A DNA stretch of 31,754 nucleotides from a virus (lineage: Duplodnaviria > Heunggongvirae > Uroviricota > Caudoviricetes), in IMG/VR virus record IMGVR_UViG_3300037313_000650; one strand, given 5' to 3'. Below, piece by piece: positions 1 to 26,340 of the stretch. Each line of letters starts with the position of its first letter. The stretch's first letter is position 1. A program made the position numbers and the translations under genes. Below the pieces are notes generated by a model. That model was not told the DNA's origin. It saw nothing but the letters and a program-made list of their open reading frames with translations, and did no database searches.

Positions 1-40
1 CTTTTGTTACCTTACTCATTGTAATTGTTGATTTTAAATA

Positions 41-364
41 TTAAATAATTTTATTTAAGTGTTTGTAAATTCTATCCAACCTAAAATTTTGGTAATTAAT
101 GCATTTGATAAGTCTAGTGATTTTTCCAATTGCATCACTTGGTTCAGGCTCTGTCTTATCAGCAGTATTTTCAGGTTCACTCTTATCAGTAAGGATCATA
201 TTTAATGCAATAGATATATCATTTACAGTGTTTCCTAATCTAGCGTATTCATTCTCCAGAGAGTCATAAACTTCCTTTAATGCTGAAGATTTAGCTTTAG
301 GTGCATCATCAGAAATATATGTTCCGCAATTACCAAAGTTCTTGCTTAAATCATAGTCATACAT
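41..364 (-). CDS. hypothetical protein
   Basis: 107-aa ORF in a tightly packed minus-strand run; no recognised motif. Confidence 0.75.
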   Translation of the reverse strand: MYDYDLSKNFGNCGTYISDDAPKAKSSALKEVYDSLENEYARLGNTVNDISIALNMILTDKSEPENTADKTEPEPSDAIGKITRLIKCINYQNFRLDRIYKHLNKII

Positions 365-376
365 AATTGTTGGTTT

Positions 377-643
377 TTATTTTATCAAAAGGTTTAAAAA
401 GCTTTTAGCTGCATTATTAGCTATTTCATGAATTCCATTTTCAATAAATAGATATCTTGTAAAGCCTGTTCTTTTTTCTAATTCTCTATGAAATTCATCA
501 TAGAAAGCCATAGCTATGTTAGCTTGCCAAGTATAATAATAACTACCTTCTGAAGTGTCCTTCTTCATTTCTCTTATGACAATCTCCATAGCTTTTGCCA
601 ATTCTGAATCCTGTTTTTCCAAATCTGTATATACTTCTTTCAT
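377..643 (-). CDS. phage hypothetical protein (YYYTWQANIAMAFYDE motif)
   Basis: 88-aa ORF; motif resembles small conserved phage proteins from recall; function unknown. Confidence 0.8.
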   Translation of the reverse strand: MKEVYTDLEKQDSELAKAMEIVIREMKKDTSEGSYYYTWQANIAMAFYDEFHRELEKRTGFTRYLFIENGIHEIANNAAKSFLNLLIK

Positions 644-649
644 ATTTAT

Positions 650-844
650 TTATTTTACATAATAGTCTCCATACATCCATTCTCCAAAATCTACCAACTG
701 ATTTAAAAGATCATTTGGGTTTAACTTCCTACCATCTACTTTCTTACCATCAATTGTTAGTTCAGGAGAAGTTGTCAGGATACATAATGCTGCCATTAAT
801 AATCTGCCTTCTCTGCTGTTGATATCAATATTATTTAATGTCAT
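650..844 (-). CDS. hypothetical protein
   Basis: 64-aa ORF, ATGA overlap with upstream gene. Confidence 0.75.
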   Translation of the reverse strand: MTLNNIDINSREGRLLMAALCILTTSPELTIDGKKVDGRKLNPNDLLNQLVDFGEWMYGDYYVK

Positions 845-1353
845 AGGTTTGTATTTTCCCAGAAGAACACTGGTTTGTTATTAGTTTTTGTAATATAGAA
901 ATCTGGAACTAATATAGATTCTTCAGATAGATATAAGGAAGTAAACCTATATTGATCTGGTTCCAGTTTAGATTTAACTAAGAGTTTTACCTTATTCAGA
1001 TTCTTTCCTCTGAAAATACTACTTGTAACAAATAGGTATTTAAAACTCTTGTCTATATGTTTATTTATCCAACTGGAAAGATATTTATCAAATGGGGGAT
1101 AAGTCTTTTCATTTTCATCCCACACCTGAGACATATTAGCTTTAGGGAGTTCTAAATTAATCACTTCATATAACTCATTGTGATTCAGGTAGGATAGCTT
1201 GTGGTTAACTAGCTGTACTAATCTAGAGGAATATTCTGGAGAACAATTTACTATAATTGTATTATTATCTATAAACCCACTACTCTTGATCTTCTCAATC
1301 AAATAATTACTCTGAGATAGTTCCCTTTCTGGTGATACATATAATATTTCCAT
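841..1353 (-). CDS. type I phosphoribosyltransferase-fold protein, degenerate (Gpt/HPRT-like)
   Basis: C-terminal PDFY...PVFFWEN resembles the Gpt/HPRT-like PDYY...WIVFPWE tail; YLFVTSSIFRGKNL sits where the PRPP loop VDD..TG.T would be but lacks the acidic pair. Confidence 0.5.
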   Translation of the reverse strand: MEILYVSPERELSQSNYLIEKIKSSGFIDNNTIIVNCSPEYSSRLVQLVNHKLSYLNHNELYEVINLELPKANMSQVWDENEKTYPPFDKYLSSWINKHIDKSFKYLFVTSSIFRGKNLNKVKLLVKSKLEPDQYRFTSLYLSEESILVPDFYITKTNNKPVFFWENTNL

Positions 1354-1359
1354 ACTTCA

Positions 1360-1390
1360 CAAAGTTAATATATTTTCTTATAATATCAAT
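1360..1390 (-). promoter_or_regulatory. Bacteroidota sigma70-type promoter candidate
   Basis: Minus strand reads ATTG-N19-TAACTTTG, ending 6 nt before the ATG at 1353. Confidence 0.55.
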
Positions 1391-1530
1391 AATTTATAAT
1401 TAGGATGTTTTTCATCTGTTATATGAATAGCTATATCACCATCAATATCTTCTGTAAGTAGAATAATTAATTCTGACACATTTATATGTCCATCATCCAG
1501 AAGTCTCCTTAAAATATCTATCTTACTCAT
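1378..1530 (-). CDS. small hypothetical protein (MSKIDILRRLLDDG..., 50 aa)
   Basis: Read manually; TAATG coupling with the stop of the 1530-1973 ORF; fills the gap. Confidence 0.65.
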   Translation of the reverse strand: MSKIDILRRLLDDGHINVSELIILLTEDIDGDIAIHITDEKHPNYKLLIL

Positions 1531-1973
1531 TAGCTTCCTACCTTTTCATTTGTACCATCCCAGACAAATTCTTCTACTGGAAGGTGTTTATTACAACCTA
1601 CACAAAATGTAGCTCCATAAAATTGGGGATTCCTAGCATAAGTTTCAGCTATAGCCTGTCCCATTCTGGTCACTGCTCCGCAGCCGCTACTAAGTTGTTT
1701 CTCTGTCCAATATCTACCTACTACTGGAGATTCACTCTCTGGATACTTCTCATACTTTACATAATAATCCTTATATTGTTCCTTTTGTTCTGCTGTAAGG
1801 TCAACCAAAGGATATTTAGGTTGTAATCCTTTATGAACATAGCTATCTCTATAAGGTCTTACAAATCCTTTAGCTCTTTCCTCTTCTGAAAGAACCAAAT
1901 AGCATTCATTCTGACCTTCTGATTTCTGCCCTTCTACTAAGCAAGGGTCTTGTGGGTTTGTTGTTAATGACAT
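1530..1973 (-). CDS. conserved phage protein, probable Zn-binding
   Basis: YLVLSEEERAKGFVRP motif and C/CxxC/H residues (CGAVT, FCVGCNKH); recalled from diverse phages. Confidence 0.85.
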   Translation of the reverse strand: MSLTTNPQDPCLVEGQKSEGQNECYLVLSEEERAKGFVRPYRDSYVHKGLQPKYPLVDLTAEQKEQYKDYYVKYEKYPESESPVVGRYWTEKQLSSGCGAVTRMGQAIAETYARNPQFYGATFCVGCNKHLPVEEFVWDGTNEKVGS

Positions 1974-1974
1974 A

Positions 1975-2250
1975 TTATATAATTATTTTTGCTGGTTTAA
2001 TTATTATAGATTCTTCTGGTTCCCAACACCTACCATTCATTCCCATATTAAGTTTAAATCTGATCTTTTTACATGGGGCAAGTATTGTCATCTCATTAGT
2101 TCTTGAATACACTGCTATATTAGTTATAACACAATCTTCATCTATAAATGAAACATCATAATATGGAGACTCTATTTCAAATCTTGAAGAGTTGGGATTG
2201 GGAAGTTCATTCCAAATCTTACTCCATTGTACTGCTGATATACTAATCAT
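1975..2250 (-). CDS. hypothetical protein
   Basis: 91-aa ORF, 1-nt spacing to neighbours. Confidence 0.75.
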   Translation of the reverse strand: MISISAVQWSKIWNELPNPNSSRFEIESPYYDVSFIDEDCVITNIAVYSRTNEMTILAPCKKIRFKLNMGMNGRCWEPEESIIIKPAKIII

Positions 2251-2251
2251 A

Positions 2252-2473
2252 TCAATTTGTTGGTTTTACCTGAGCTTGTACAAAACTCCCATTTGAAAGT
2301 TTGAAAGCCATTCCGTTATTAATCTTATATTCAAAAGCATCTTTCTCTGTAAGAATGTTTACAACAGGATCATCTGAACTGATGAACATCTTCGTAACTA
2401 CCTGACCGTCATACTTTTTCCCTACTGAAATAATTACAGCATTCTCTACATCTACTAGTTCTAATATATCCAT
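2252..2473 (-). CDS. hypothetical protein
   Basis: 73-aa ORF, TAATG coupled. Confidence 0.75.
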   Translation of the reverse strand: MDILELVDVENAVIISVGKKYDGQVVTKMFISSDDPVVNILTEKDAFEYKINNGMAFKLSNGSFVQAQVKPTN

Positions 2474-2706
2474 TATACTTTATTTAATTTAATAGTTACA
2501 TTATGAGGTGTTGTAACTTTTATAACATCTTTGTTTTCTCCTTCTTCCTTATTAGCTGGAATAGAAGGAAACCCTTTAATAATTTCATTCATTGTCCTCT
2601 GTATCTTTTCCCAATCCTCACTAGGAACATCTATAGTAACTGAGATCGGCTTATAATTATGCCCGAATAAAGCCTGAATAGGTGCTGCTATTTCATTGAA
2701 TATCAT
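2473..2706 (-). CDS. hypothetical protein
   Basis: 77-aa ORF, ATGA coupled. Confidence 0.75.
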   Translation of the reverse strand: MIFNEIAAPIQALFGHNYKPISVTIDVPSEDWEKIQRTMNEIIKGFPSIPANKEEGENKDVIKVTTPHNVTIKLNKV

Positions 2707-2999
2707 AAAAATTTCTTTTTAAAATCCTTAAGTGTTTCAATATCAAGCCTTTCTCCTTCCTTAAGAGCTTCCCATGCATCCTTATCCATAATAATCCTAC
2801 CTACATGGTCATCTCCAATACCAAATAATAGTTCTACTGTCTCTGTATAGAACTCTAATCTCCAACCTTTCTTATTAATAGCCACCTTAGACTTAGGAGA
2901 AAACTTAAGTTCTTTTCCAAGACTAGCATAATTATCTACTTGTGAACAATAGACAGAGTTTAATCTCCCTTCATTTGTATTTCCTGAATTTACATACAT
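2703..2999 (-). CDS. hypothetical protein (first gene of minus-strand operon)
   Basis: 98-aa ORF downstream of a consensus promoter. Confidence 0.75.
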   Translation of the reverse strand: MYVNSGNTNEGRLNSVYCSQVDNYASLGKELKFSPKSKVAINKKGWRLEFYTETVELLFGIGDDHVGRIIMDKDAWEALKEGERLDIETLKDFKKKFL

Positions 3000-3044
3000 A
3001 TTGTTTCTGTTTTTATTTTATTATATTCTTCAATTTTAACATAC

Positions 3045-3076
3045 CAAATATACAAAACATATATTAGAATTCCAAA
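3045..3076 (-). promoter_or_regulatory. Bacteroidota sigma70-type promoter (-33 TTTG / -7 TAnnTTTG)
   Basis: Minus strand reads TTTG-N20-TATATTTG, matching the established Bacteroides/Flavobacterium consensus, pointing into the minus-strand operon. Confidence 0.8.
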
Positions 3077-3109
3077 TTTAATACGCATATTTGTAAATAT
3101 ACACTTGTA

Positions 3110-3272
3110 TGCCCCCCTACATATTGTACCCCTGTCTTATATACCCCCTCTCTAAAATAACCCCCTATGATGTGTATACTTCTTTTTGGGTATAAAATAT
3201 TGCGTATGTCTCTTTTTGAGGAGGAGACCCACAAAATACCCCCGCTCTTTGTTGGGGAAACCGATATACCCC
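3110..3272. repeat. cluster of six C4-C6 runs, four as TACCCC
   Basis: gccccc (~3111), tacccc (3127), ataccccc (3141), aaccccc (3159), ataccccc (3236), atacccc (3266) in a very AT-rich context. Confidence 0.6.
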
Positions 3273-3305
3273 TATCATTTATTATTTAACAATTAAACAA
3301 TTTTT

Positions 3306-3728
3306 ATGGCTAAGATTAATTTCAAAGACTATGCAGCAGGAAGTCAGAATGCTGTTGCTCAATCGTTGCTCCAATTCGTAAAAGAGGGTGAAGAACAAGG
3401 TTTTGAACTGGTAGTTCCTAAGGGTGTGAAGGGTATTGTATTTAAATCCAAAGCAGGCAATCCACAGATTGCATTTCGGAATGATGAAGGTCAGGTGATC
3501 TTTGTGAGAATCAGTGCCGCATTGGATGCAGCCTTGTCTGCCAAAGAAGACGGCATTTCCTTACCCAATCAACCTGTTTATCATGTTGATCTGGATAATG
3601 GCGGTAAAATGCTGGTTGTAGGTATGAAGGGTGACGGTCTGGAATTTGTGGCTGCTGATCCTAAGAAGATGGCCAAATATGCTGTATCTGAAAGACCAGC
3701 AGTAACGGCTGATGAAGACGGTGATTAA
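3306..3728 (+). CDS. hypothetical protein, standalone unit, acidic C-terminus
   Basis: 140-aa ORF, visibly GC-richer than its neighbours, A-rich start region, own terminator, ends ADEDGD. Confidence 0.9.
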   Translation: MAKINFKDYAAGSQNAVAQSLLQFVKEGEEQGFELVVPKGVKGIVFKSKAGNPQIAFRNDEGQVIFVRISAALDAALSAKEDGISLPNQPVYHVDLDNGGKMLVVGMKGDGLEFVAADPKKMAKYAVSERPAVTADEDGD

Positions 3729-3730
3729 TC

Positions 3731-3753
3731 AAAGGGGCTTTGCCCCTTTTTTT
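3731..3753 (+). terminator. intrinsic terminator
   Basis: aaaggggc-ttt-gccccttt followed by T-run directly after the stop. Confidence 0.85.
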
Positions 3754-3781
3754 AACTGTACGACTCACGACCACAAGGCAC

Positions 3782-3832
3782 AAAAGAATAATGTAGGACT
3801 ATACGTTTTTTATAGTTATACATTATTCTTTT
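3782..3832. repeat. long inverted repeat / stem-loop
   Basis: aaaagaataatgta (3782-3795) pairs perfectly with tacattattctttt (3819-3832); inner actata/tatagt. Confidence 0.75.
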
Positions 3833-3961
3833 TTTATATAGATTAAAAACAGGATTTACATCCCGTAAAAAATGGTTTTTTTGTCCGATTTTTACATAGG
3901 TTTAGGTACATGATATATTTTCTTAATATATAACTATATTAAGAGTTTAATCTTTACTACC

Positions 3962-4006
3962 ATGACCGAACAACAAGTAAACGACCTGTACGAAAGGGGG
4001 GAATGA
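3962..4006 (+). CDS. possible micropeptide MTEQQVNDLYERGE
   Basis: 14-codon ORF followed by an acaatcagg/cctgattgt hairpin with T-run (~4032-4072); may be non-coding. Confidence 0.3.
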   Translation: MTEQQVNDLYERGE

Positions 4007-4225
4007 GCCACACTAAGGAGTAAGTGTTTGACAATCAGGGAGTTATTAAATTAATTGCCTGATTGTTTTTTATTTGTATATACAAATATAAGGGGGGAGT
4101 GGGAGAGGAGAACAACAGAATAACAATACAGGGATTATAAAAAAGAGCTAAATAAACATATTAATTTTGTCTGCATTATATACTAATAGTAAACAAATCA
4201 AATAAACACTTAAATTTTAAACTAT

Positions 4226-4516
4226 ATGGATAAGATATTTATTGTAATAGACATCAATCTTGCAATAACACAAGATGTATCTATTCCTTGTGTATTTGGT
4301 AATATTGAAGATGCATTTAAATATGCATTAGATGATGTTATTAAGAAAGATGGAAGAGATATTAAAGTACATGGTTGTGAGATAGAAGGATATATTTCTA
4401 CTACAGATAGGATTAGTAATAATAACTCTCTTGGTTCTAATTATGGAGTGAGTTATAAGTCTTATTATGGTGGTTATCCTTGTGCTAGAATGATAATGGA
4501 AAGAAAGGTTAATTAA
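4226..4516 (+). CDS. hypothetical protein
   Basis: 96-aa ORF with A-rich start region. Confidence 0.8.
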   Translation: MDKIFIVIDINLAITQDVSIPCVFGNIEDAFKYALDDVIKKDGRDIKVHGCEIEGYISTTDRISNNNSLGSNYGVSYKSYYGGYPCARMIMERKVN

Positions 4517-4556
4517 TACTCTTAAATATTTACTAAACAATTAAACTAACAAGTAT

Positions 4557-4796
4557 ATGAAATCTATTCAAATCATTCTATTGTTGTGTATCCATATAGG
4601 AGATGATTTTCCTAAGACTATGGATAAAGATGCTATACAGAAGAATCTCAATATTCTTATTGAGCAGGATTTAATAATGCAAGATTTTAGTAGTAATGTA
4701 ATAGCTGGACATAGTTATAAAGTAACAGAAAGAGGTAAAACGCTGATTTGTTCATTATATAATACCTTTCTTGATAAGGTGTGGGATTTAAAATAA
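4557..4796 (+). CDS. hypothetical protein, possible winged-helix
   Basis: 79 aa; LNILIEQDLI...YKVTERGK resembles the wHTH wing motif. Confidence 0.7.
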   Translation: MKSIQIILLLCIHIGDDFPKTMDKDAIQKNLNILIEQDLIMQDFSSNVIAGHSYKVTERGKTLICSLYNTFLDKVWDLK

Positions 4797-4880
4797 CATT
4801 TAGTAGTTCAGGAGGGATTATTTCTTTCTGAACTACTTTTTTGCTTACAATACACATTAACAATTTAAATACTGCTGCAT

Positions 4881-5363
4881 ATGCAAGTCAAACTCTGTTA
4901 TTTCAATCAACATTGGAATATTTATCTGTATACAGGTACAAATAAGGGATTTTACGATGCTCCTTGGATAAATATTAAACCAACTGAGCAGGTTATTGTA
5001 AGAGGAGATGAAGGAGAATACAGATTGCGCACTTATTCTCATCCTGATATTCCTGTTCTATGCTCATTTGGATTCTGGTATTACGATGAAAAGAGAAGAC
5101 CGGGACATGGTGGTGAATGGTCATCTAATAGTAGGGTTATTAATGAGGTATTTGGTACAGACCTTTATGAGGTGGCATTAGACCAAATATCTATGGCTGT
5201 TTCTCTCAAATGGCTCAAAGAAGTATTAGGAGACAAAGTGGTATGGGAACCAGACGATATTTGGGGTAGTATTATTACTCATGTGAAGGGTGAGAAGAAT
5301 GAACATGATAAATGGGTTACAATACCATTAGTCACTTCAGAAGATTTAATAGTTAATAATTAA
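4881..5363 (+). CDS. hypothetical protein
   Basis: 160-aa ORF followed by a terminator. Confidence 0.85.
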   Translation: MQVKLCYFNQHWNIYLYTGTNKGFYDAPWINIKPTEQVIVRGDEGEYRLRTYSHPDIPVLCSFGFWYYDEKRRPGHGGEWSSNSRVINEVFGTDLYEVALDQISMAVSLKWLKEVLGDKVVWEPDDIWGSIITHVKGEKNEHDKWVTIPLVTSEDLIVNN

Positions 5364-5370
5364 TTAATAT

Positions 5371-5406
5371 AAGTAGCTCAAGGGTTTATACTTTGGGCTA
5401 CTTTTT
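5371..5406 (+). terminator. intrinsic terminator
   Basis: aagtagctcaagg...ctttgggctactt plus T-run. Confidence 0.75.
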
Positions 5407-5419
5407 AAACTAACTAGTT

Positions 5420-5533
5420 ATGAAAAAGTACATCATTATCATATTAGTTCTGTTATCACTTATATTTACATCCTGTTACAGGGATGGATATGGATGTAGA
5501 GGTAATAGTAGAATTATTACCAGAGTAAGATAA
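5420..5533 (+). CDS. tiny lipoprotein (37 aa)
   Basis: Read manually: MKKYIIIILVLLSLIFTS-C-YRDGYGCRGNSRIITRVR; basic N-region, hydrophobic core, lipobox FTSC. Confidence 0.7.
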   Translation: MKKYIIIILVLLSLIFTSCYRDGYGCRGNSRIITRVR

Positions 5534-5566
5534 ACACATTATTTAATTCTTTAATTCACATTAACA

Positions 5567-6061
5567 ATGAAAAAGTTTAGAAATCCTTATTTAGTACAAC
5601 GTTTATTAGCACCTACAAGAGTTGATAATCCTTTCTCCTTTGGTGGTGGAAGGATAGATGGTGGATTTAGTGAAGAAGGAATGACTGTATTAAAACCTAT
5701 ATTTTCTTTTGATTATATGGGCAGTGCTGAATTTGAATGGGGTGCAGTACCTGAAGCATTTCAGAAATTATATGAAGCTGATCTAATAGATGGATTTATT
5801 ACAATTGATAATATTGGTACAGTATGGTATATCTGCGCTAAAGATATAGCTGAAGATGTAATAAAGTGGATAGTGACTGCTATGAATGGAAAGGAAGGCT
5901 ATTTAAAAGAGCGTTTAGGTTTACGTGGTGCTTTAACAGGAGATAGATACGATCAAAAATACAAGGGTTGGATTGAACTGGACAATCCATTCATGTTCTT
6001 TACAGACTTTAATATGTTCCAGAAAACATGGCAGATATTTAGTAAAGAGCCAGCAAAATAA
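5567..6061 (+). CDS. conserved phage protein (FDYMGSAEFEWGA motif)
   Basis: 164 aa; motif recalled from uncharacterised phage proteins. Confidence 0.85.
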   Translation: MKKFRNPYLVQRLLAPTRVDNPFSFGGGRIDGGFSEEGMTVLKPIFSFDYMGSAEFEWGAVPEAFQKLYEADLIDGFITIDNIGTVWYICAKDIAEDVIKWIVTAMNGKEGYLKERLGLRGALTGDRYDQKYKGWIELDNPFMFFTDFNMFQKTWQIFSKEPAK

Positions 6062-6081
6062 CTAAGCCGGACGATTAAGTT

Positions 6082-6109
6082 AAGGGCGGTGTTTCTACAC
6101 TGCCCTTTT
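6082..6109 (+). terminator. intrinsic terminator
   Basis: aagggcggtgt-ttct-acactgccctt then TT. Confidence 0.75.
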
Positions 6110-6208
6110 GATTTCACTCTACTTGGAGAGTATAAATAGGTGTTAAGCCAAGTGCGTTGGTATATATATTATGTATATATATCAGATCACATTAAAAACT
6201 TTATTATC

Positions 6209-6748
6209 ATGGCACAACATCATTTTCACACTAACTATTCTGATTATTCTGCTGAAACGAAGTATGGATTAAACAACATTCCTACAGAAGGTTTTGTTAG
6301 TATTGATAACCAAACAACTACTACAACTGCTGTAGTTAGACAGAATGTTAAGGGTTATTTTAAATTATCCCTATTTGCTATTGCTCAATTTATCAACGGT
6401 GCTAATCTATATGCATTTGTAAGGAATGACAGTAAGGTGAGTGGTAAAGAAATGCATTTACTATCCAGATTAGCACTATTAGCATTAAATGCTGGAAATG
6501 ATGGATTTGAAACTTCTCTTGGTTTAGATAGAGAAGAAGTAACAATCCTTAAAAATCTGCTTACTATTAGAATGCAGCATTGTGAGAAAGAGCGTGATGA
6601 ACGTTCTGAAAACTTCAATCCTGATACATATATTGGACAGAAGCTTCTTTTGTTAGATATACGTGAATGGCTGATGTGTGATGTAATTGAAGACAAACCT
6701 ATTCCTGTAGCACAAGCAGTTGCTAATAATTGGGATAATGAAGTGTAA
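6209..6748 (+). CDS. hypothetical protein
   Basis: Start moved to the ATG at 6209 (A-rich start region); 179 aa. Confidence 0.85.
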   Translation: MAQHHFHTNYSDYSAETKYGLNNIPTEGFVSIDNQTTTTTAVVRQNVKGYFKLSLFAIAQFINGANLYAFVRNDSKVSGKEMHLLSRLALLALNAGNDGFETSLGLDREEVTILKNLLTIRMQHCEKERDERSENFNPDTYIGQKLLLLDIREWLMCDVIEDKPIPVAQAVANNWDNEV

Positions 6749-6761
6749 CCTTTTTGTTAAT

Positions 6762-6797
6762 GTGAGGCCGAGGGAGCAATCCCAAAGCCTCACTTTT
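6762..6797 (+). terminator. terminator-like hairpin with 3x3 internal loop and GNRA tetraloop
   Basis: gtgaggc-cga-ggga-GCAA-tccc-aaa-gcctcac-tttt. Confidence 0.7.
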
Positions 6798-6811
6798 AAA
6801 CTTAACTGTAT

Positions 6812-7321
6812 ATGGAAAATGTATTAGAATTAAAACATGTCACATTCGATGATAAAGTTCGTAAAATGTGGAATATACATATGAATGATTATTATCATCT
6901 AATCAGAAATAGAGAATTAATAAGTAATACTCTTTATAGAGTGGGTGGATTTGGCGTTGATTTAAAAGCTGATTATTTTATACTATTAAAGTACACCGAA
7001 GCTTATTATGATGATACAATCACAAAGGATAAAGACAGAAAACCTCATCTGAAAAATCAATGGTGTATTCTGGACAAGAATGGAGTGGAGAGGGTAATCT
7101 TCAAATCATTTGAAAATCCTTATTTAGTGAAAGATAGTCAGATTTATACTATTAATAACAAATATTACAACATTGAAACTGGAGAATTCTATTGTTATGC
7201 TCTTAAGGAAATGGAATCTACTGAATATTTATTCCTAAATAGCCAGTTTGATGAGAATAAATCCAGAAGAGGTGTAATGAAAATCAATAAGAAAGACGGT
7301 ACTTGGGAACTATTTAAATAA
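6812..7321 (+). CDS. hypothetical protein (beta-rich, aromatic)
   Basis: 169-aa ORF. Confidence 0.85.
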   Translation: MENVLELKHVTFDDKVRKMWNIHMNDYYHLIRNRELISNTLYRVGGFGVDLKADYFILLKYTEAYYDDTITKDKDRKPHLKNQWCILDKNGVERVIFKSFENPYLVKDSQIYTINNKYYNIETGEFYCYALKEMESTEYLFLNSQFDENKSRRGVMKINKKDGTWELFK

Positions 7322-7338
7322 TCTCTAAACTACTGTAT

Positions 7339-7617
7339 ATGAATAAAGATTGGACACTAGAACTATTCATGAACCAATTAGGTTATGAACTTGTATCTGA
7401 TGATGGTATATATGCTAAATATCAGAATAAAGGTGGAACCAAATCTACCTTTTATGGTATAATGGGTAGAGGAAAGAGACTAATCTATTTCAATAGAGAT
7501 TTTGATAAGAATTATGTGTTTGTAGGTATTGAAGAAGATGGTGGTACAAGAAGAGTATTTCATGGTGGTTGTCAAACTGGAGAAGATTTGATAAAGATAT
7601 TAGAGTTGGTATATTAA
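7339..7617 (+). CDS. hypothetical protein
   Basis: 92-aa ORF. Confidence 0.8.
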   Translation: MNKDWTLELFMNQLGYELVSDDGIYAKYQNKGGTKSTFYGIMGRGKRLIYFNRDFDKNYVFVGIEEDGGTRRVFHGGCQTGEDLIKILELVY

Positions 7618-7660
7618 TAATTATGATATCCTTTCTTTTAATAACCAAAAAGCAAATCAA

Positions 7661-7723
7661 ATGGCAATCATTTGCGGAGTCGTCATGAGTAATGAAGATG
7701 CTCTTGAGTTCGACTTTAACTGA
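7661..7723 (+). CDS. candidate micropeptide MAIICGVVMSNEDALEFDFN
   Basis: 20 codons, strong A-rich start region (aaccaaaaagcaaatcaaATG), terminator follows. Confidence 0.5.
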   Translation: MAIICGVVMSNEDALEFDFN

Positions 7724-7746
7724 CTGTAGCTCTTTAAAGAGTTAAT

Positions 7747-7783
7747 AATAATCCAGAGTAATTAATGCTCTGGATTATTTTTT
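7747..7783 (+). terminator. intrinsic terminator
   Basis: aataatccagag...ctctggattatt plus T-run. Confidence 0.8.
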
Positions 7784-7806
7784 AATTACCTTCAAACAAA
7801 AAAACC

Positions 7807-7980
7807 ATGTTCTTAGCAAGTATAACAGCTTTAGTACTAGCTATATTTGTATCATTTGCTGTATTACACGATTTAAAATACCAAAAGTACAATGAAAGTG
7901 AGTGGACTACACCCACAATAAGAATAATGTGTATCATATTCTGGGTATTGTTCTATATTATAAATCATCAAATAAAATAA
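7807..7980 (+). CDS. small membrane protein (2 TM, 57 aa)
   Basis: Read manually: MFLASITALVLAIFVSFAVL...IRIMCIIFWVLFYII. Confidence 0.7.
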   Translation: MFLASITALVLAIFVSFAVLHDLKYQKYNESEWTTPTIRIMCIIFWVLFYIINHQIK

Positions 7981-7989
7981 AAAAAAATC

Positions 7990-8430
7990 ATGAAAACAGT
8001 ATTTCAAACCATTGCTTTATTGCTATTAGCATTATCTTTTTGTTTTGTATCTTGTACATCTAAAAGTGGCCATCTTTTAGACAATAAGAAACAGGTAAGT
8101 CAACAAACTACCGTGATTGACATGGGTGTAGATAGTACAGTACGTGTTAAAGTATTGGAAAACAGCACTATATCATATGCTATAATAAATAAATCTGTTG
8201 TTAATTCATTCAGACCATATGATACTGTATGGCTGAATATGAAAACTCATCGTATTGACGATACAGATACTAATACATTAAAGGTAGTATTGTGTCCTGA
8301 TAGATTTGGTACATTCTATGATGGTGAAGGGAATGAAATTCCTATAGAAGTGGTACAATTATATGTAAAAAGCCACTTTGTTCATCTGAATGTAGATGAA
8401 AGAACAATAGTAGATCAATATTTTTATTAA
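7990..8430 (+). CDS. putative lipoprotein
   Basis: Signal peptide with lipobox FVS-C. Confidence 0.75.
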   Translation: MKTVFQTIALLLLALSFCFVSCTSKSGHLLDNKKQVSQQTTVIDMGVDSTVRVKVLENSTISYAIINKSVVNSFRPYDTVWLNMKTHRIDDTDTNTLKVVLCPDRFGTFYDGEGNEIPIEVVQLYVKSHFVHLNVDERTIVDQYFY

Positions 8431-12033: not shown

Positions 12034-12276
12034 ATGAATACATTTTTAAGTATAATAGGTGTAGGTGCTTTAATTTGGTTAGTATTTGCATTTACTAAAT
12101 ACAAAGGTGAAAAGATTCAAGAACATTTAGAACGTGCATACTTTGAAGGTCAAAAAGATGCTTTACAGGGAGATATTAGAATCAAAAGGAACAATGATTC
12201 TTGTTGGATATGGATTAAATCTCCTTGGAATAGCGGAGAAGAACCTATCTTTGTCCCTAATAAAGTATGTCAATAA
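12034..12276 (+). CDS. membrane-anchored hypothetical protein
   Basis: N-terminal TM segment; AYFEGQKDAL...WIKSPW. Confidence 0.8.
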   Translation: MNTFLSIIGVGALIWLVFAFTKYKGEKIQEHLERAYFEGQKDALQGDIRIKRNNDSCWIWIKSPWNSGEEPIFVPNKVCQ

Positions 12277-12290
12277 TATATTTAAATTAT

Positions 12291-12481
12291 TACAGCAGCT
12301 ATCTGTAGGACAACGTATGCAGGTGAAAACCCTGCTTACTTATGTGACAACCTGTTAGGGAATACGACCCACCGCTACTGTGGGTGTCTAAACAGATGTA
12401 GTCAATCGTCTGTCGTCAGGATGATGGGGTAGCCATTCCCTCAAGGACGTAAAAAGTGACTACCGTAGCGGGGCTGCTGTA
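12291..12481 (+). ncRNA. candidate structured ncRNA 1 (pseudoknotted, T-loop-like hairpin)
   Basis: ORF-free and GC-rich; 9-bp terminal helix tacagcagc/gctgctgta; gcagg-TGAAAAC-cctgc; acccac-cgctact-gtgggt whose loop pairs with gtagcg (12465-12470); gtagtca/tgactac helix. Confidence 0.7.
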
Positions 12482-12489
12482 TATCTTAT

Positions 12490-12677
12490 TTAAATCTGCT
12501 CAGAGTAATCAAATAGCAAGGGGTTGTGTCTTGAAAGATAGACTGCCTTTGCAGCTATGACCAATAGCGTTGTTTGATGAAAAGAGATAGAGACTAGGGC
12601 AGATGGTGGAAATACCATGCAGTCATCCTTGTGAGGCTTCCCTAGCTACTATTCCCTTTGGTCAGGGACAGGTTTAA
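12490..12677 (+). ncRNA. candidate structured ncRNA 2 (kissing loop)
   Basis: Terminal helix ttaaatctg/caggtttaa; atcaaata/tgtttgat; ctaggg/ccctag; loop TGACCAA (12558-12564) complementary to loop TTGGTCA (12658-12664). Confidence 0.7.
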
Positions 12678-12704
12678 TTTTTTCATATTCAGTTAGTTTT
12701 GGTC

Positions 12705-12733
12705 CCTCTGATATTTCTATATCGGAGGTTTTT
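12705..12733 (+). terminator. intrinsic terminator after the ncRNA pair
   Basis: cctctgatat-ttct-atatcggagg-ttttt. Confidence 0.8.
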
Positions 12734-13434: not shown

Positions 13435-13835
13435 TGAAAAAGATATTATTAATGCTGGTATTGTTTGTCACCAGCTTTATAGTAAAAGCACAAACAACGT
13501 ATTATGCAGAATATATAGGTAAAACACTTTGGAATAAATATTCTAAAAAATGGGATTATCAAATGCCCAAAGAAACATTCCAGAAGATTACTATATATGG
13601 AGATGTTATTTTAGTGGAAGATAAAGCTAAATCTAGATATACTGTTCATAATGTAATTGATAAAAGTGAAGGGTATTATTACTATACTATATGGAACGCA
13701 GTAGATGAAAGTGGTAGAGAATGTGTAGTAAAACTATCCAAAAGAAGTGATGAGAAATACAGTGAACTATGTGTATTTTATATTAGTTATAGTTCTGGTT
13801 TGTATTATTGGTTTGATGATAAAAAATCTTACTAA
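13434..13835 (+). CDS. putative secreted/periplasmic protein
   Basis: Sec signal MKKILLMLVLFVTSFIVKA-Q, with Gln at +1 as typical of Bacteroidota SPI substrates. Confidence 0.8.
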   Translation: MKKILLMLVLFVTSFIVKAQTTYYAEYIGKTLWNKYSKKWDYQMPKETFQKITIYGDVILVEDKAKSRYTVHNVIDKSEGYYYYTIWNAVDESGRECVVKLSKRSDEKYSELCVFYISYSSGLYYWFDDKKSY

Positions 13836-19567: not shown

Positions 19568-21703
19568 ATGAAACAATTACAGCAAAAGATTCAAGACCAA
19601 CTAAATAAAATGACTTCAACTGGTAAGCTCTTTAGAAGTAGTATATCAGGTTCTGAAGTATGGAACATCTATATACAATCTTTTGAAAATGATCCGATCT
19701 TTCGTGACCCCAACAGTTCTACACATAATTGTAACCTGTGTAATAATTTCATCAGACGATATGGTAATATTGTAGCTGTATCTCCTGAAAATGAAATTAT
19801 GACTATTTGGGATGTAGAAATTGAAGGTGAGTTTGCACCAGTAGTTAAAGCTATCTCAACTAAATTGAAATCAGCTAAGATTCAGGATGTATTTTTTGAG
19901 ACTTATGCTGAACTTAATAGTTTGAACTATGAGAAGTGTAAAAAAACAAATACTGTATTCAGATTGGGTATAGATAAAAATCATAAACAGTATACCAAAG
20001 AAGAAGCTGATAAATTTGGTGTAGTAGAAGAGGGAGAAATCAGAACATTTCATCATCTTCATGTGGATATACCTGCTGCTTTTGTAGATATGAGTGGTGC
20101 TTCAGTAGAAGCTCTTATGGGTAGCTACAGAGATGCTAAGAATGTATTTCAAAGAGCAATGGAAGAGATAAGCATAGATACGTTACAGCTTGTTAGAGAT
20201 TTAATAAATCAAGGTAGTTTACTGGATGGTACAACACATCTATACAAAGTAGAGCAATTCATTCCATTTAAACAACAATATAGTGAGATTGGTAAAAAAG
20301 ATAGAGATAATTGGTGTTGGGCAACTTCTTATAAATTACCTATTGCTAAGTTTAAGAATGAATTGATTGGCGTATTATGTTCTGAACTTTCTGAAGGTAA
20401 GGAACTTAACGAAGCTTGTCAGGCATGGAATAAGCGTGTTGATCCTGCTAATTACATGAAAGCTACTGCACCCATCACCAAAAAGCAAATAGCAGAAGCT
20501 GAAAAATTCGTAGAAGAGAATGGATATGTAGAATCATTTGATAGAAGATTTGCTACAATTGATGATATTAAGGTGAGTGAAATACTTCATGCTAATGTTG
20601 GAGATGGTAAAATTAAGAAAGTCTCTATTTTTGATAACGTAAAGTCTACCTCTACCAGACATAAGAGAAGTGAATTTGATAAAGTGGAAGAAGTGAGTAT
20701 AGAAAAGTTCATGAAAGATATTCTTCCTTCATGTACTTCTATAGAGGCTTTCCTCACTTCTCAACATGAGGGTAATATGGTATCTCTCACTACAGCTAAC
20801 GACAAGAACAGCAAACCTATCTTTAAATGGGATAACAACTATTCTTGGACCTATAATGGTAACTTAGCTGGTAAATCACAGATTAAGCAAGCTGTAAAGG
20901 ATGCTGGTGGTAATGTGGAAGGTGTATTGAATTTTCGTTTAGCTTGGAATGAATCTGGTGAAGATAATTCTGATTTGGACTTGTGGGCTATCGAACCTAA
21001 TGGTGTTAGAATTGGTTTCAGCACACAATACAGAAAAGGTAGACCGGGATATGATCGTAGTTCTATGTCTGGTCAATTAGATGTAGATATTATCAGCCCT
21101 TCTGGTAAATTAGCTGTTGAGAATATTACATGGACTGACTTTAACAAGATGAAAGATGGAGTATATATAGTATATGTAAATCCATATCATGCATCAAATT
21201 CAAAAGGTTTTAAGTTAGAGATTGAATTTGATGGTGAAACATATGTTTATAGTTATGATCGCCCTGTACCTGTAGTATCAAATGTACATATAGCTGAAGT
21301 CACTCTAAAAGATAGGAAGTTTAGTATCAGACACTTACTTCCTGTAGTTGAAGGTACTGGTGCTCAGAAAGAAATCTATGGCTTGGAATCTAACCAATTC
21401 CATAAGGTGAATCTAGTATGTTTGTCTCCTAATCATTGGGAAGGTAACAATGTAGGAAATAAGCATTATTTCTTCATGCTGGAAGGTGCTAAATGTCCTA
21501 TTTCAATTCGTTCTTTCCACAATGAGAACCTGATTCCTGAACTTGCAGCACATAGAAAAGTGTTAGAAGTTCTAGGAGCTACTCATACTATTAAACCTAA
21601 TGGTAAGCAATTATCAGGTTTAGGTTTTAACAGTACTGTAAAGGATGAATTAGTAGTTAGATTAAAAGGTAGTCATTCAAGAGTAATAAAAATCAAATTC
21701 TAA
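19568..21703 (+). CDS. large conserved phage protein with C-terminal YfaP/DUF2135-like domain
   Basis: 711 aa; N-terminal HNCNLCNNFIRRYG (CxxC); C-terminal DLDLWAIEPNG and GQLDVD...AVENITW match the DUF2135-type pattern. Confidence 0.8.
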   Translation: MKQLQQKIQDQLNKMTSTGKLFRSSISGSEVWNIYIQSFENDPIFRDPNSSTHNCNLCNNFIRRYGNIVAVSPENEIMTIWDVEIEGEFAPVVKAISTKLKSAKIQDVFFETYAELNSLNYEKCKKTNTVFRLGIDKNHKQYTKEEADKFGVVEEGEIRTFHHLHVDIPAAFVDMSGASVEALMGSYRDAKNVFQRAMEEISIDTLQLVRDLINQGSLLDGTTHLYKVEQFIPFKQQYSEIGKKDRDNWCWATSYKLPIAKFKNELIGVLCSELSEGKELNEACQAWNKRVDPANYMKATAPITKKQIAEAEKFVEENGYVESFDRRFATIDDIKVSEILHANVGDGKIKKVSIFDNVKSTSTRHKRSEFDKVEEVSIEKFMKDILPSCTSIEAFLTSQHEGNMVSLTTANDKNSKPIFKWDNNYSWTYNGNLAGKSQIKQAVKDAGGNVEGVLNFRLAWNESGEDNSDLDLWAIEPNGVRIGFSTQYRKGRPGYDRSSMSGQLDVDIISPSGKLAVENITWTDFNKMKDGVYIVYVNPYHASNSKGFKLEIEFDGETYVYSYDRPVPVVSNVHIAEVTLKDRKFSIRHLLPVVEGTGAQKEIYGLESNQFHKVNLVCLSPNHWEGNNVGNKHYFFMLEGAKCPISIRSFHNENLIPELAAHRKVLEVLGATHTIKPNGKQLSGLGFNSTVKDELVVRLKGSHSRVIKIKF

Positions 21704-23554: not shown

Positions 23555-24052
23555 GGGGGTGTAAGGAATTGATTCACAGTAATAGGTAAATACACAGGTA
23601 AGAGTATCTAGTCCTCGCAATGCTAGGTAATAATAAATGCAGAAACTGAGCTTTCTGATATGACTTTCGATAGCTTAATGGCTTTCGTAGGTGCTGAAAA
23701 AGTAGCTGCTTAGTAGCCCTACTATTCAGTGGAGATGTAGCTAAGGCTTTTCCTCCCTTGGGGTTTGATTTAACCTTGCAACAGAATAAATCAGTAGAGG
23801 GACTCCCTTAACAGTTAAGGCTGACCTTAAGCACTCTACTTAAAATACTATTGTATATAGGGGGTGAAGCAATAGAAACCAGAGGGGAAACTGTAAAGTC
23901 ACCGGGATTGTTGTAAGTATATGTCCAAATGATAACAGAACTTTCAAAACTACGGTGCAGGTATTAAATATTAGTTTAATATCAGTACTAAACCTGTAAG
24001 TGCGTATTTATTGTATTCTGGAGAAGACAGGGCTTCGATGCCCTCACCTCCA
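23555..24052 (+). ncRNA. ssrA: tmRNA
   Basis: Acceptor stem GGGGGTG/CACCTCC-A with G3:U Ala determinant; GGAATTGA after the 5' stem; helix 2 (taaatac/gtattta, acaggt/acctgt); ACTAAACCTGTA; T-arm agggc-ttcgat-gccct; resume context AATAAAT-GCA; tag ORF 23639-23713 AETELSDMTFDSLMAFVGAEKVAA*. Confidence 0.95.
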
Positions 24053-24080
24053 CAATTTTTTCCTACACATCCACAAATAT

Positions 24081-24667: not shown

Positions 24668-24675
24668 ATGATATA

Positions 24676-24830
24676 AAAATAGGAAGTGTGCCGTAGGTAT
24701 TATTAACGTTTATCGGGAAGCCTACAAGTGCTTAATATCCTTCCTATTTTAAATTATTAGGTATAGATGGTGTATGGAGTTTGATTAACCCACTATGGAA
24801 TGATTAGTAAACAGCCTCACACTATACCTA
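24676..24830. other. two adjacent long imperfect hairpins in an ORF-free gap
   Basis: aaaataggaag/cttcctatttt with inner gtaggt/gcctac; taggtatag/ctataccta with inner gtgt/acac and gttt/aaac. Confidence 0.55.
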
Positions 24831-24902
24831 AAGCTTATCAGATTTTGCCATTTGATAGCTAACCAGCCGCTTTAGTGCTGAAAATTCACATGAGAGAAAG
24901 TT

Positions 24903-24934
24903 AACCCCTTGATAGGAATATCAGGGGGTTTTTT
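24903..24934 (+). terminator. intrinsic terminator
   Basis: aaccccttgata-GGAA-tatcagggggtt plus T-run. Confidence 0.85.
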
Positions 24935-24972
24935 AATTTTGTTAAACATTTTCTAATTATAAATCAAACAAA

Positions 24973-26160: not shown

Positions 26161-26340
26161 ATGTACATTATCTTTCAAGACAAACGAACACTTGAGTGTT
26201 TTTCTGTATCTCAAAATGCATTAGACTTTCCTGAGTTCTTAGAATTTGAACAAAGGGGATTAGTAAAGAGAGTATTTGTAGGTAAAAAACGAGATTGTGA
26301 TAAGTATCTTGAAAATGAAGTTGAGGTAGAAATGATTTAA
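26161..26340 (+). CDS. small hypothetical protein (59 aa)
   Basis: Read manually: MYIIFQDKRTLECF...; terminator follows at ~26350-26374. Confidence 0.7.
   Translation: MYIIFQDKRTLECFSVSQNALDFPEFLEFEQRGLVKRVFVGKKRDCDKYLENEVEVEMI

Follow-up and report, generated by a model that had tools for sequence, protein, structure and literature searches.

A predicted small structured RNA family with a covariation-supported kissing loop in crAss-like phages

The locus and the fold of RNA 2

The window analysed here, a stretch of 31,754 nt, represents the minus strand of a complete circular phage genome of 164,315 bp and 33% G+C. The phage is crAss-like, with a terminase and portal of the crAss type; the genome also carries 24 tRNAs and an ORF of 4,737 aa, and a tmRNA lies at window positions 23555-24055. 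DNA near-identical to the window is present in soil and rhizosphere sequencing runs. An ORF-free gap of raised GC content, which opens after the stop codon at 12276 and runs up to a terminator-like hairpin, holds two structured RNA candidates in tandem, RNA 1 and RNA 2, separated by 8 nt (Table 1). RNA 2 is the subject of this study.

Other parts of this genome and its relatives also look structured. An ORF-free segment on the 3' side of the tmRNA region (window 24668-24960) contains several hairpins and a terminator, and similar structured segments follow the tmRNA of a close relative, G005 (113951-114581). Two further GC-rich, ORF-free and apparently structured segments lie inside the tRNA cluster of the RNA 2 phage (L124:11180-11300 and 13640-13810, corresponding to genome positions 55179-55300 and about 57640-57810), and in a related phage a spacer of 115 nt between two tRNA-Gly genes (L156:1612-1730) looks structured and has a loop-E-like internal loop.

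An earlier note on this DNA had described RNA 2 as a kissing-loop RNA closed by a terminal helix, and all of the helices and motifs that it named are found where it placed them: P1, the UGAAA motif, the kissing hairpin and the last hairpin (Table 1), as well as the domain A stem (12508-15/12571-78), the domain B stem (12594-99/12640-45) and the two hairpins within domain B (12603-18 and 12627-36). The complement between the two kissing loops is perfect. The list was correct as far as it went, but it overlooked P2a, P3 and P5. With these helices included, the junction of P1, P2, P5 and P8 is a perfect four-way one, free of unpaired linkers, and at the far end of P2 a three-way junction carries P3 and the hairpin P4. 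P2 is interrupted by an internal loop (12501-12509) that we take to be loop-E-like.

As a single sequence, RNA 2 folds with modest stability (z -2.0, with 6 of 200 shuffles equally stable); by comparison, only 1 of 1000 dinucleotide shuffles produced a loop-loop match of at least 7 bp. The second hairpin of domain B (12627-36) has a pair probability of about 0.1 and is not conserved. In a joint fold, RNA 1, RNA 2 and the terminator stay independent of one another. With an antisense role in mind, we note that 14 nt at window 26169-26182 are complementary to the P3 tip (E 0.8), a match longer than in 20 of 20 shuffles, but the tip itself is not conserved. In one sequencing run (X6, depth only 2) a strain variant has a loop substitution, T12613C, and an additional C in P8 at 12653, and its core is intact.

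Table 1. Features of RNA 2 and its surroundings, in window coordinates
Feature	Position	Strand	Remarks
RNA 1, separate structured RNA candidate in tandem with RNA 2	12291-12481	+	No homologue found; same class not shown
RNA 2, founding member of a predicted new family of 188-200 nt	12490-12677	+	Homologues and covariation
P1, 5' strand (pairs with 12669-12677)	12490-12498	+	Three junction-proximal pairs invariant; outer pairs covary
P2a, 5' strand (pairs with 12585-12586), four-way junction arm	12499-12500	+	Invariant
P2 internal loop, purine-rich (opposite 12577-12584)	12501-12509	+	Sequence and size differ among homologues
P2b core, 5' strand (pairs with 12571-12576)	12510-12515	+	Covarying
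P3 arm (stem 12516-22/12546-52)	12516-12552	+	Pairs covary strongly; arm of 37, 45 and 54 nt across copies
UGAAA T-loop-like hairpin, distal in P3	12528-12543	+	Not conserved; UGAAA at 12532
Three-way-junction residues A12553, G12569, U12570 and P4 kissing hairpin (12554-12568)	12553-12570	+	Junction residues invariant
Kissing loop, 5' partner (pairs with 12658-12664)	12558-12564	+	Perfect 7-nt complement
P5 and domain B (P5, 12587-90/12649-52)	12587-12652	+	Closing helix covaries; interior varies in sequence and fold, length constant at 66-68 nt
P8 hairpin, loop = 3' kissing partner	12653-12668	+	Invariant UCC/GGA base; invariant UUGG (12658-12661)
U-rich tract after P1, candidate processing site	12678-12683	+	U- or AU-rich in all homologues; function inferred
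Intrinsic terminator-like hairpin and U-run, closing the transcription unit	12705-12733	+	Hairpin 12705-12728

Homologues and the conserved core

Two full homologues came from DNA around relatives of the window's DUF8224 gene. The first (L290:6634-6825) lies on a 163-kb crAss-like contig with a putative major capsid protein at 66% identity; it is 57% identical to RNA 2 and scores 53 bits with the RNA 2 covariance model (E 5e-14). The second (L294:5963-6162), on a 14-kb IMG/VR fragment, is 47% identical and scores 35 bits (E 2e-8). A partial homologue was found on a 99.8-kb contig (X4 record 5) that differs from the window genome. It matches only 12548-12579 and 12659-12682, with two differences in each; these are the two kissing halves of RNA 2, spaced by 84 nt as against 79 in RNA 2, and the start of a tRNA-like gene follows. 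The family is known, then, from three full sequences and one partial. DUF8224 (PF26675) is itself very widespread and conserved, with more than 2,100 homologues at E<=1e-50 of the 711-aa protein encoded at window 19568-21703, and its genes often have tRNA, tmRNA or other RNA genes on their flanks.

Neither the window RNA nor the L290 or L294 copy matched Rfam 15 at the gathering threshold or at relaxed E (<=5-10). Among viral structured-RNA candidates published previously, the motifs are at most 151 nt long (Fremin et al., PMC10690425), so that at most a fragment of RNA 2 might be among them. DNA-pattern scans of IMG/VR, metagenomes and species genomes, and blastn of GenBank phages with the three members as queries, returned chance matches only. 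These searches relied on variable positions, and the patterns predate the true consensus; rarity is therefore not shown by the blanks. In 401 Bacteroidota genomes there were 4 pattern matches, none with the core, against about 9 in the control, and strict patterns did not detect the family in about 95 phage records, many of them fragments, that were related or carried DUF8224. The RNA 2 model had no match in positions 1-8000 of the crAss-like Cellulophaga phage phi14:2, and RNA 2 is absent from G005. Three apparent matches were set aside as chance: L148 (14 bits, within a coding gene), L379 and L380. The family is thus patchy across phage records and, therefore, apparently dispensable to its carriers; possibly, it also occurs in phages other than crAss-like ones.

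The three full copies differ enough for their pairing to be compared. In an anchor-based hand count of the nested helices, with the kiss excluded, 23 of 66 cells had changed, 16 of them by double-sided changes and 7 by wobbles, and none was broken. In a model-fitted alignment of the same copies, 99% of 110 cells are paired and 17 of 39 pairs show double changes, as against 37-42% and 1-3 pairs in slid-partner controls; these figures describe three sequences, aligned to fit the structure and without phylogenetic correction.

The kiss was assessed separately, in the register set by the invariant UUGG. It comprises seven Watson-Crick pairs in the window and seven pairs in L290, where one G-C has become U-A and one pair is G.U. 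In L294, five contiguous pairs remain (one of them U.G and one a gained G-C), and the same U-A pair lies beyond a G.A mismatch. Overall, this amounts to one compensatory pair (G-C to U-A) and two wobbles (A-U to G.U and C-G to U.G). The covariation in homologues, the rarity of such a match among shuffles and the blank Rfam search bear out the earlier proposal of a novel structured RNA with a genuine kissing loop, and on this comparative evidence we regard the RNA 2 family as real and as new among the structured RNAs of crAss-like phages.

Invariant residues fall into three groups: the four-way junction, the three-way junction (one A and one GU) and UUGG. The P3 tip with its UGAAA hairpin, and the interior of domain B with its two hairpins, are not conserved. 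Neither a fixed loop-E motif nor a fixed UGAAA T-loop can be retained as a family feature, given that the P2 internal loop varies in sequence and size and that the P3 tip is variable. Comparison of the copies thus shows a conserved core consisting of a perfect four-way junction and a three-way junction locked together by the kiss, with the P3 tip and domain B free to vary.

In all three copies, P4, the kiss and P8 together (about 14-16 bp) are close in length to the P2 arm (about 13-17 steps), and the kiss is therefore probably intramolecular, a loop-loop clamp on the core. In this model, P4, the kiss and P8 would fold back alongside the P2 arm. Alternatively, the kiss might join separate molecules, so that RNA 2 would assemble into RNA-only rings or cages, as phi29 pRNA, ROOL and GOLLD do, and serve in packaging or as a scaffold. 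Covariation is blind to the difference between intra- and intermolecular pairing, and a kiss of ROOL that had been predicted to be tertiary turned out to be quaternary (PMC12286853). However, the arm lengths suit an intramolecular kiss, RNA 2 lies far from the packaging genes, and it is missing from close relatives such as G005; we consider oligomer formation rather unlikely.

Genomic contexts and the relation to RNA 1

The three full copies begin 18 to about 215 nt past a stop codon, with RNA 1 in between in the window, and a U- or AU-rich tract is found at the 3' end of all four copies. In the window, where RNA 1 lies upstream, the terminator follows 27 nt after RNA 2. The L290 copy is followed by a second small RNA and then by tmRNA, and the L294 copy by a tRNA-like gene and then by DUF8224. 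The neighbours thus differ in every copy, which argues against cis-regulation of any one gene. A phage-type promoter pattern is absent before RNA 1 and RNA 2, and present before the tmRNA and in the tRNA cluster. Because the downstream neighbours differ, RNA 2 apparently lacks its own promoter and its fold is independent of the other two elements, the evidence favours a stand-alone RNA derived from polycistronic transcripts rather than a cis switch.

The opposing view, that RNA 2 is a riboswitch-like aptamer acting in cis and in tandem with RNA 1 on the terminator at 12705, draws on its fitting size, its kissing loop and conserved junction, and the closeness of that terminator. It sits poorly with the independence of the three elements in the joint fold and with the differing downstream elements of the four copies, two of which (L294 and X4 record 5) run into tRNA-like genes. 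Moreover, the RNA lies just past stop codons, not past promoters, and has no expression platform, so that control in cis appears quite unlikely. We also rejected P1 plus the U-run as a terminator, as L290 lacks a U-run.

The stand-alone RNA would be made at the 3' end of a phage operon, or inside it, without its own promoter. As the earlier note had suggested, co-transcription with RNA 1 up to the terminator followed by processing is the most likely course in the window, where no phage-type promoter lies between the upstream ORF and RNA 2. Host nucleases may cut at the A/U-rich flanks and trim to P1, as they do for tRNA and tmRNA; such cuts would part RNA 2 from RNA 1 in the window and from the following tRNA-like gene in two homologues.

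The same note had gone further and taken RNA 1 and RNA 2 for two diverged members of one RNA class with a common topology. The two are adjacent and similar in length, each has a terminal helix and a 7-bp pseudoknot that connects domain A with the 3' end, and domain B of the L290 copy repeats a 9-nt word from domain B of RNA 1. Nonetheless, the RNA 2 covariance model, run with filters off, found no match in RNA 1 at E<=1, and the RNA 1 model, run over 98 loci (1.7 Mb, both homologues included), matched only RNA 1 itself; these were single-sequence models, which remote homology could escape. When sequence and pairing profile were aligned together and compared with interior-shuffled controls, true homologues reached z 2.2-5.4 and RNA 1 only z 0.8-1.4, no better than shuffles by what is admittedly a crude aligner. 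This is an outcome that the earlier note had named as one that would refute its proposal. RNA 1 has 44-46% global identity to the family and lacks its core residues, including the invariant junction residues. Nor does its topology mirror that of RNA 2, as had been claimed: RNA 1 has a three-way junction with a long linker, and a single strand next to P1 serves as its pseudoknot partner, whereas in RNA 2 a hairpin loop does so. The link had been drawn from the UGAAA hairpin and from the two hairpins of domain B, which are variable parts among RNA 2 homologues, and the L290 and L294 copies have no RNA 1 adjoining them. Membership in one class is therefore very improbable; the tandem most likely consists of two different RNAs at one operon end, with RNA 2 no paralogue of RNA 1.

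Different RNAs also occur at a second type of site, the slot after a small ORF and before tmRNA. This slot holds no RNA in the window, an RNA 2 homologue in L290 (where the similarity of the ORF is weak, E 0.003) and a different structured RNA of 170 nt in G005, which aligns with the RNA 2 family no better than shuffles do. Different RNA classes can therefore fill one pre-tmRNA slot in related crAss-like phages, which suggests that they are interchangeable modules.

The G005 RNA (L213:17970-18141, minus strand) is closed by a terminal helix of 15 bp, contains a pseudoknot of 6 bp and stands directly before the tmRNA; one of its hairpins, 14 nt long, recurs in an intergenic region of phi14:2 (L207 about 2910-3070). 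The segment L372:2530-2690 resembles this phi14:2 copy and, as in phi14:2, is followed by a second RNA-like segment. In L290, the small RNA between the RNA 2 homologue and tmRNA (L290:6832-6920) is a structured candidate of roughly 90 nt with a closing stem and no Rfam match. The tRNA-like gene in L294 (L294:6169-6253) begins 6 nt downstream of the RNA 2 homologue; with its long variable arm and degenerate T-loop, it was missed by ARAGORN and Rfam. Odd tRNAs with 8-nt anticodon loops are found in L290 (7694), L376 and L377.

Possible functions and comparison with known systems

What might such an RNA do? We lean, at somewhat less than an even chance, towards a stable decoy or scaffold that would act in trans by binding a host or phage protein, as part of a translation-support and counter-defence kit. 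This reading rests on context and analogy. In its weakest step, the processed RNA would resist nucleases and work alongside the 24 tRNAs and the tmRNA, for example by sequestering a host RNase or a defence protein that senses RNA. No protein partner is common to all copies.

Since UUGG is invariant, and the two changes facing it are both accommodated by wobble pairs, it is tempting to consider a sensor or sponge of tRNA ends. Here, the P8-loop UUGG would be masked by a CCA-like loop and opened by the NCCA 3' end of an uncharged or damaged tRNA competing with the kiss, much as the UGGN bulge of a T-box antiterminator pairs, but in a free RNA. The loop opposite UUGG reads ACCA in two of the three copies, and every copy is either surrounded by tRNA or tmRNA genes or carried by a phage with 24 tRNAs. 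On the other hand, just two changes are informative, the partner loop of L294 is not CCA-like, there is neither a T-box stem I nor a specifier nor an Rfam T-box match, and a 7-bp intramolecular kiss would outcompete 4-bp intermolecular pairing. We therefore rate a free tRNA-charging sensor as improbable. If it were true, the conformation of the RNA would be coupled to host translation stress or to tRNA-cleaving defence, and the RNA classes swapped into the pre-tmRNA slot would be alternative counter-defence modules. A genuine T-box was rejected, with UGG in a hairpin loop, no Rfam match and an independent terminator.

A self-cleaving or processing ribozyme is likewise unlikely. Such an RNA would free the adjacent RNAs, with a function like that of theta ribozymes at phage tRNAs, and the kiss would dock the cleavage site as in the VS ribozyme. 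The two junctions and the kiss, with their invariant junction residues, and the tRNA-like genes that directly adjoin two homologues would fit this reading, but the sole internal loop has neither a constant sequence nor a constant size, few unpaired residues are conserved (one A and one GU), and known Rfam ribozyme families are unmatched. A group I intron was considered and rejected, as was a retron or reverse transcriptase-associated RNA, for which the complete genome has no RVT_1 domain.

In architecture, RNA 2 resembles several well-known RNAs. In the lysine, cobalamin, SAM-I and manA riboswitches and in the VS ribozyme, a loop-loop helix holds other helices side by side like a clamp, and there is a purine-rich internal loop. 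The predicted clamp and the purine-rich internal loop of RNA 2 are alike in this respect, but RNA 2 has no expression platform, and conserved ligand-pocket or catalytic residues are not evident. Phage T4 makes RNA C and RNA D (species I and II), small stable RNAs of unknown function from tRNA-type transcripts, which are tRNA-like and have CCA ends. RNA 2 differs from them in its fold and encodes neither a CCA end nor a T-loop, and a tRNA mimic was rejected on the same ground.

Like Y RNAs (YrlA), RNA 2 has a long terminal stem, a multi-arm junction and a loop-loop contact, and in L294 a Ro60/TROVE gene lies 3.2 kb upstream of the RNA 2 homologue. Y RNAs are marked by GNCGAAN0-1G near the 5' end and by a tRNA-like T arm (PMC4201824). 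RNA 2 has neither this 5' motif nor a T-loop (the one match lies in the variable P3 of L294), TROVE is absent from the complete genome of the RNA 2 phage and only L294 carries Ro60, and that Ro60 has its own Y-like repeat array directly upstream; identity with Y RNA was rejected. The array (L294:880-1290) consists of four tandem Y-RNA-like repeats, the first with a tRNA-like insert, directly upstream of Ro60/TROVE (1314-2738), and has no Rfam match at the gathering score.

Similar in setting are the highly transcribed intergenic RNAs of phi14:2 (bioRxiv 10.1101/2020.03.07.982082), which come from the same phage order and are also non-coding transcripts of a small-gene region. They form a different family from RNA 2, although an RNA apparently related to them fills in G005 the slot that an RNA 2 homologue fills in L290; the gene numbers of that paper differ from those of GenBank.

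Comparable in kind are ROOL and GOLLD, orphan structured RNAs found in phages and prophages, of which ROOL can be very abundant (PMC12286853). They, too, have kissing loops and often lie near phage tRNA islands; unlike RNA 2, they measure 659 to more than 800 nt, as against 188-200 nt, and have a different architecture, and RNA 2, which matches no Rfam family, belongs to neither. Among the orphan RNAs found in phage tRNA/tmRNA islands, RNA 2 would represent a new, small, covariation-backed fold with two tolerant insertion sites. At about 190 nt, it should be much easier to probe, mutate and solve structurally than ROOL or GOLLD, and may thus provide a practical handle on why large phages keep such RNAs.
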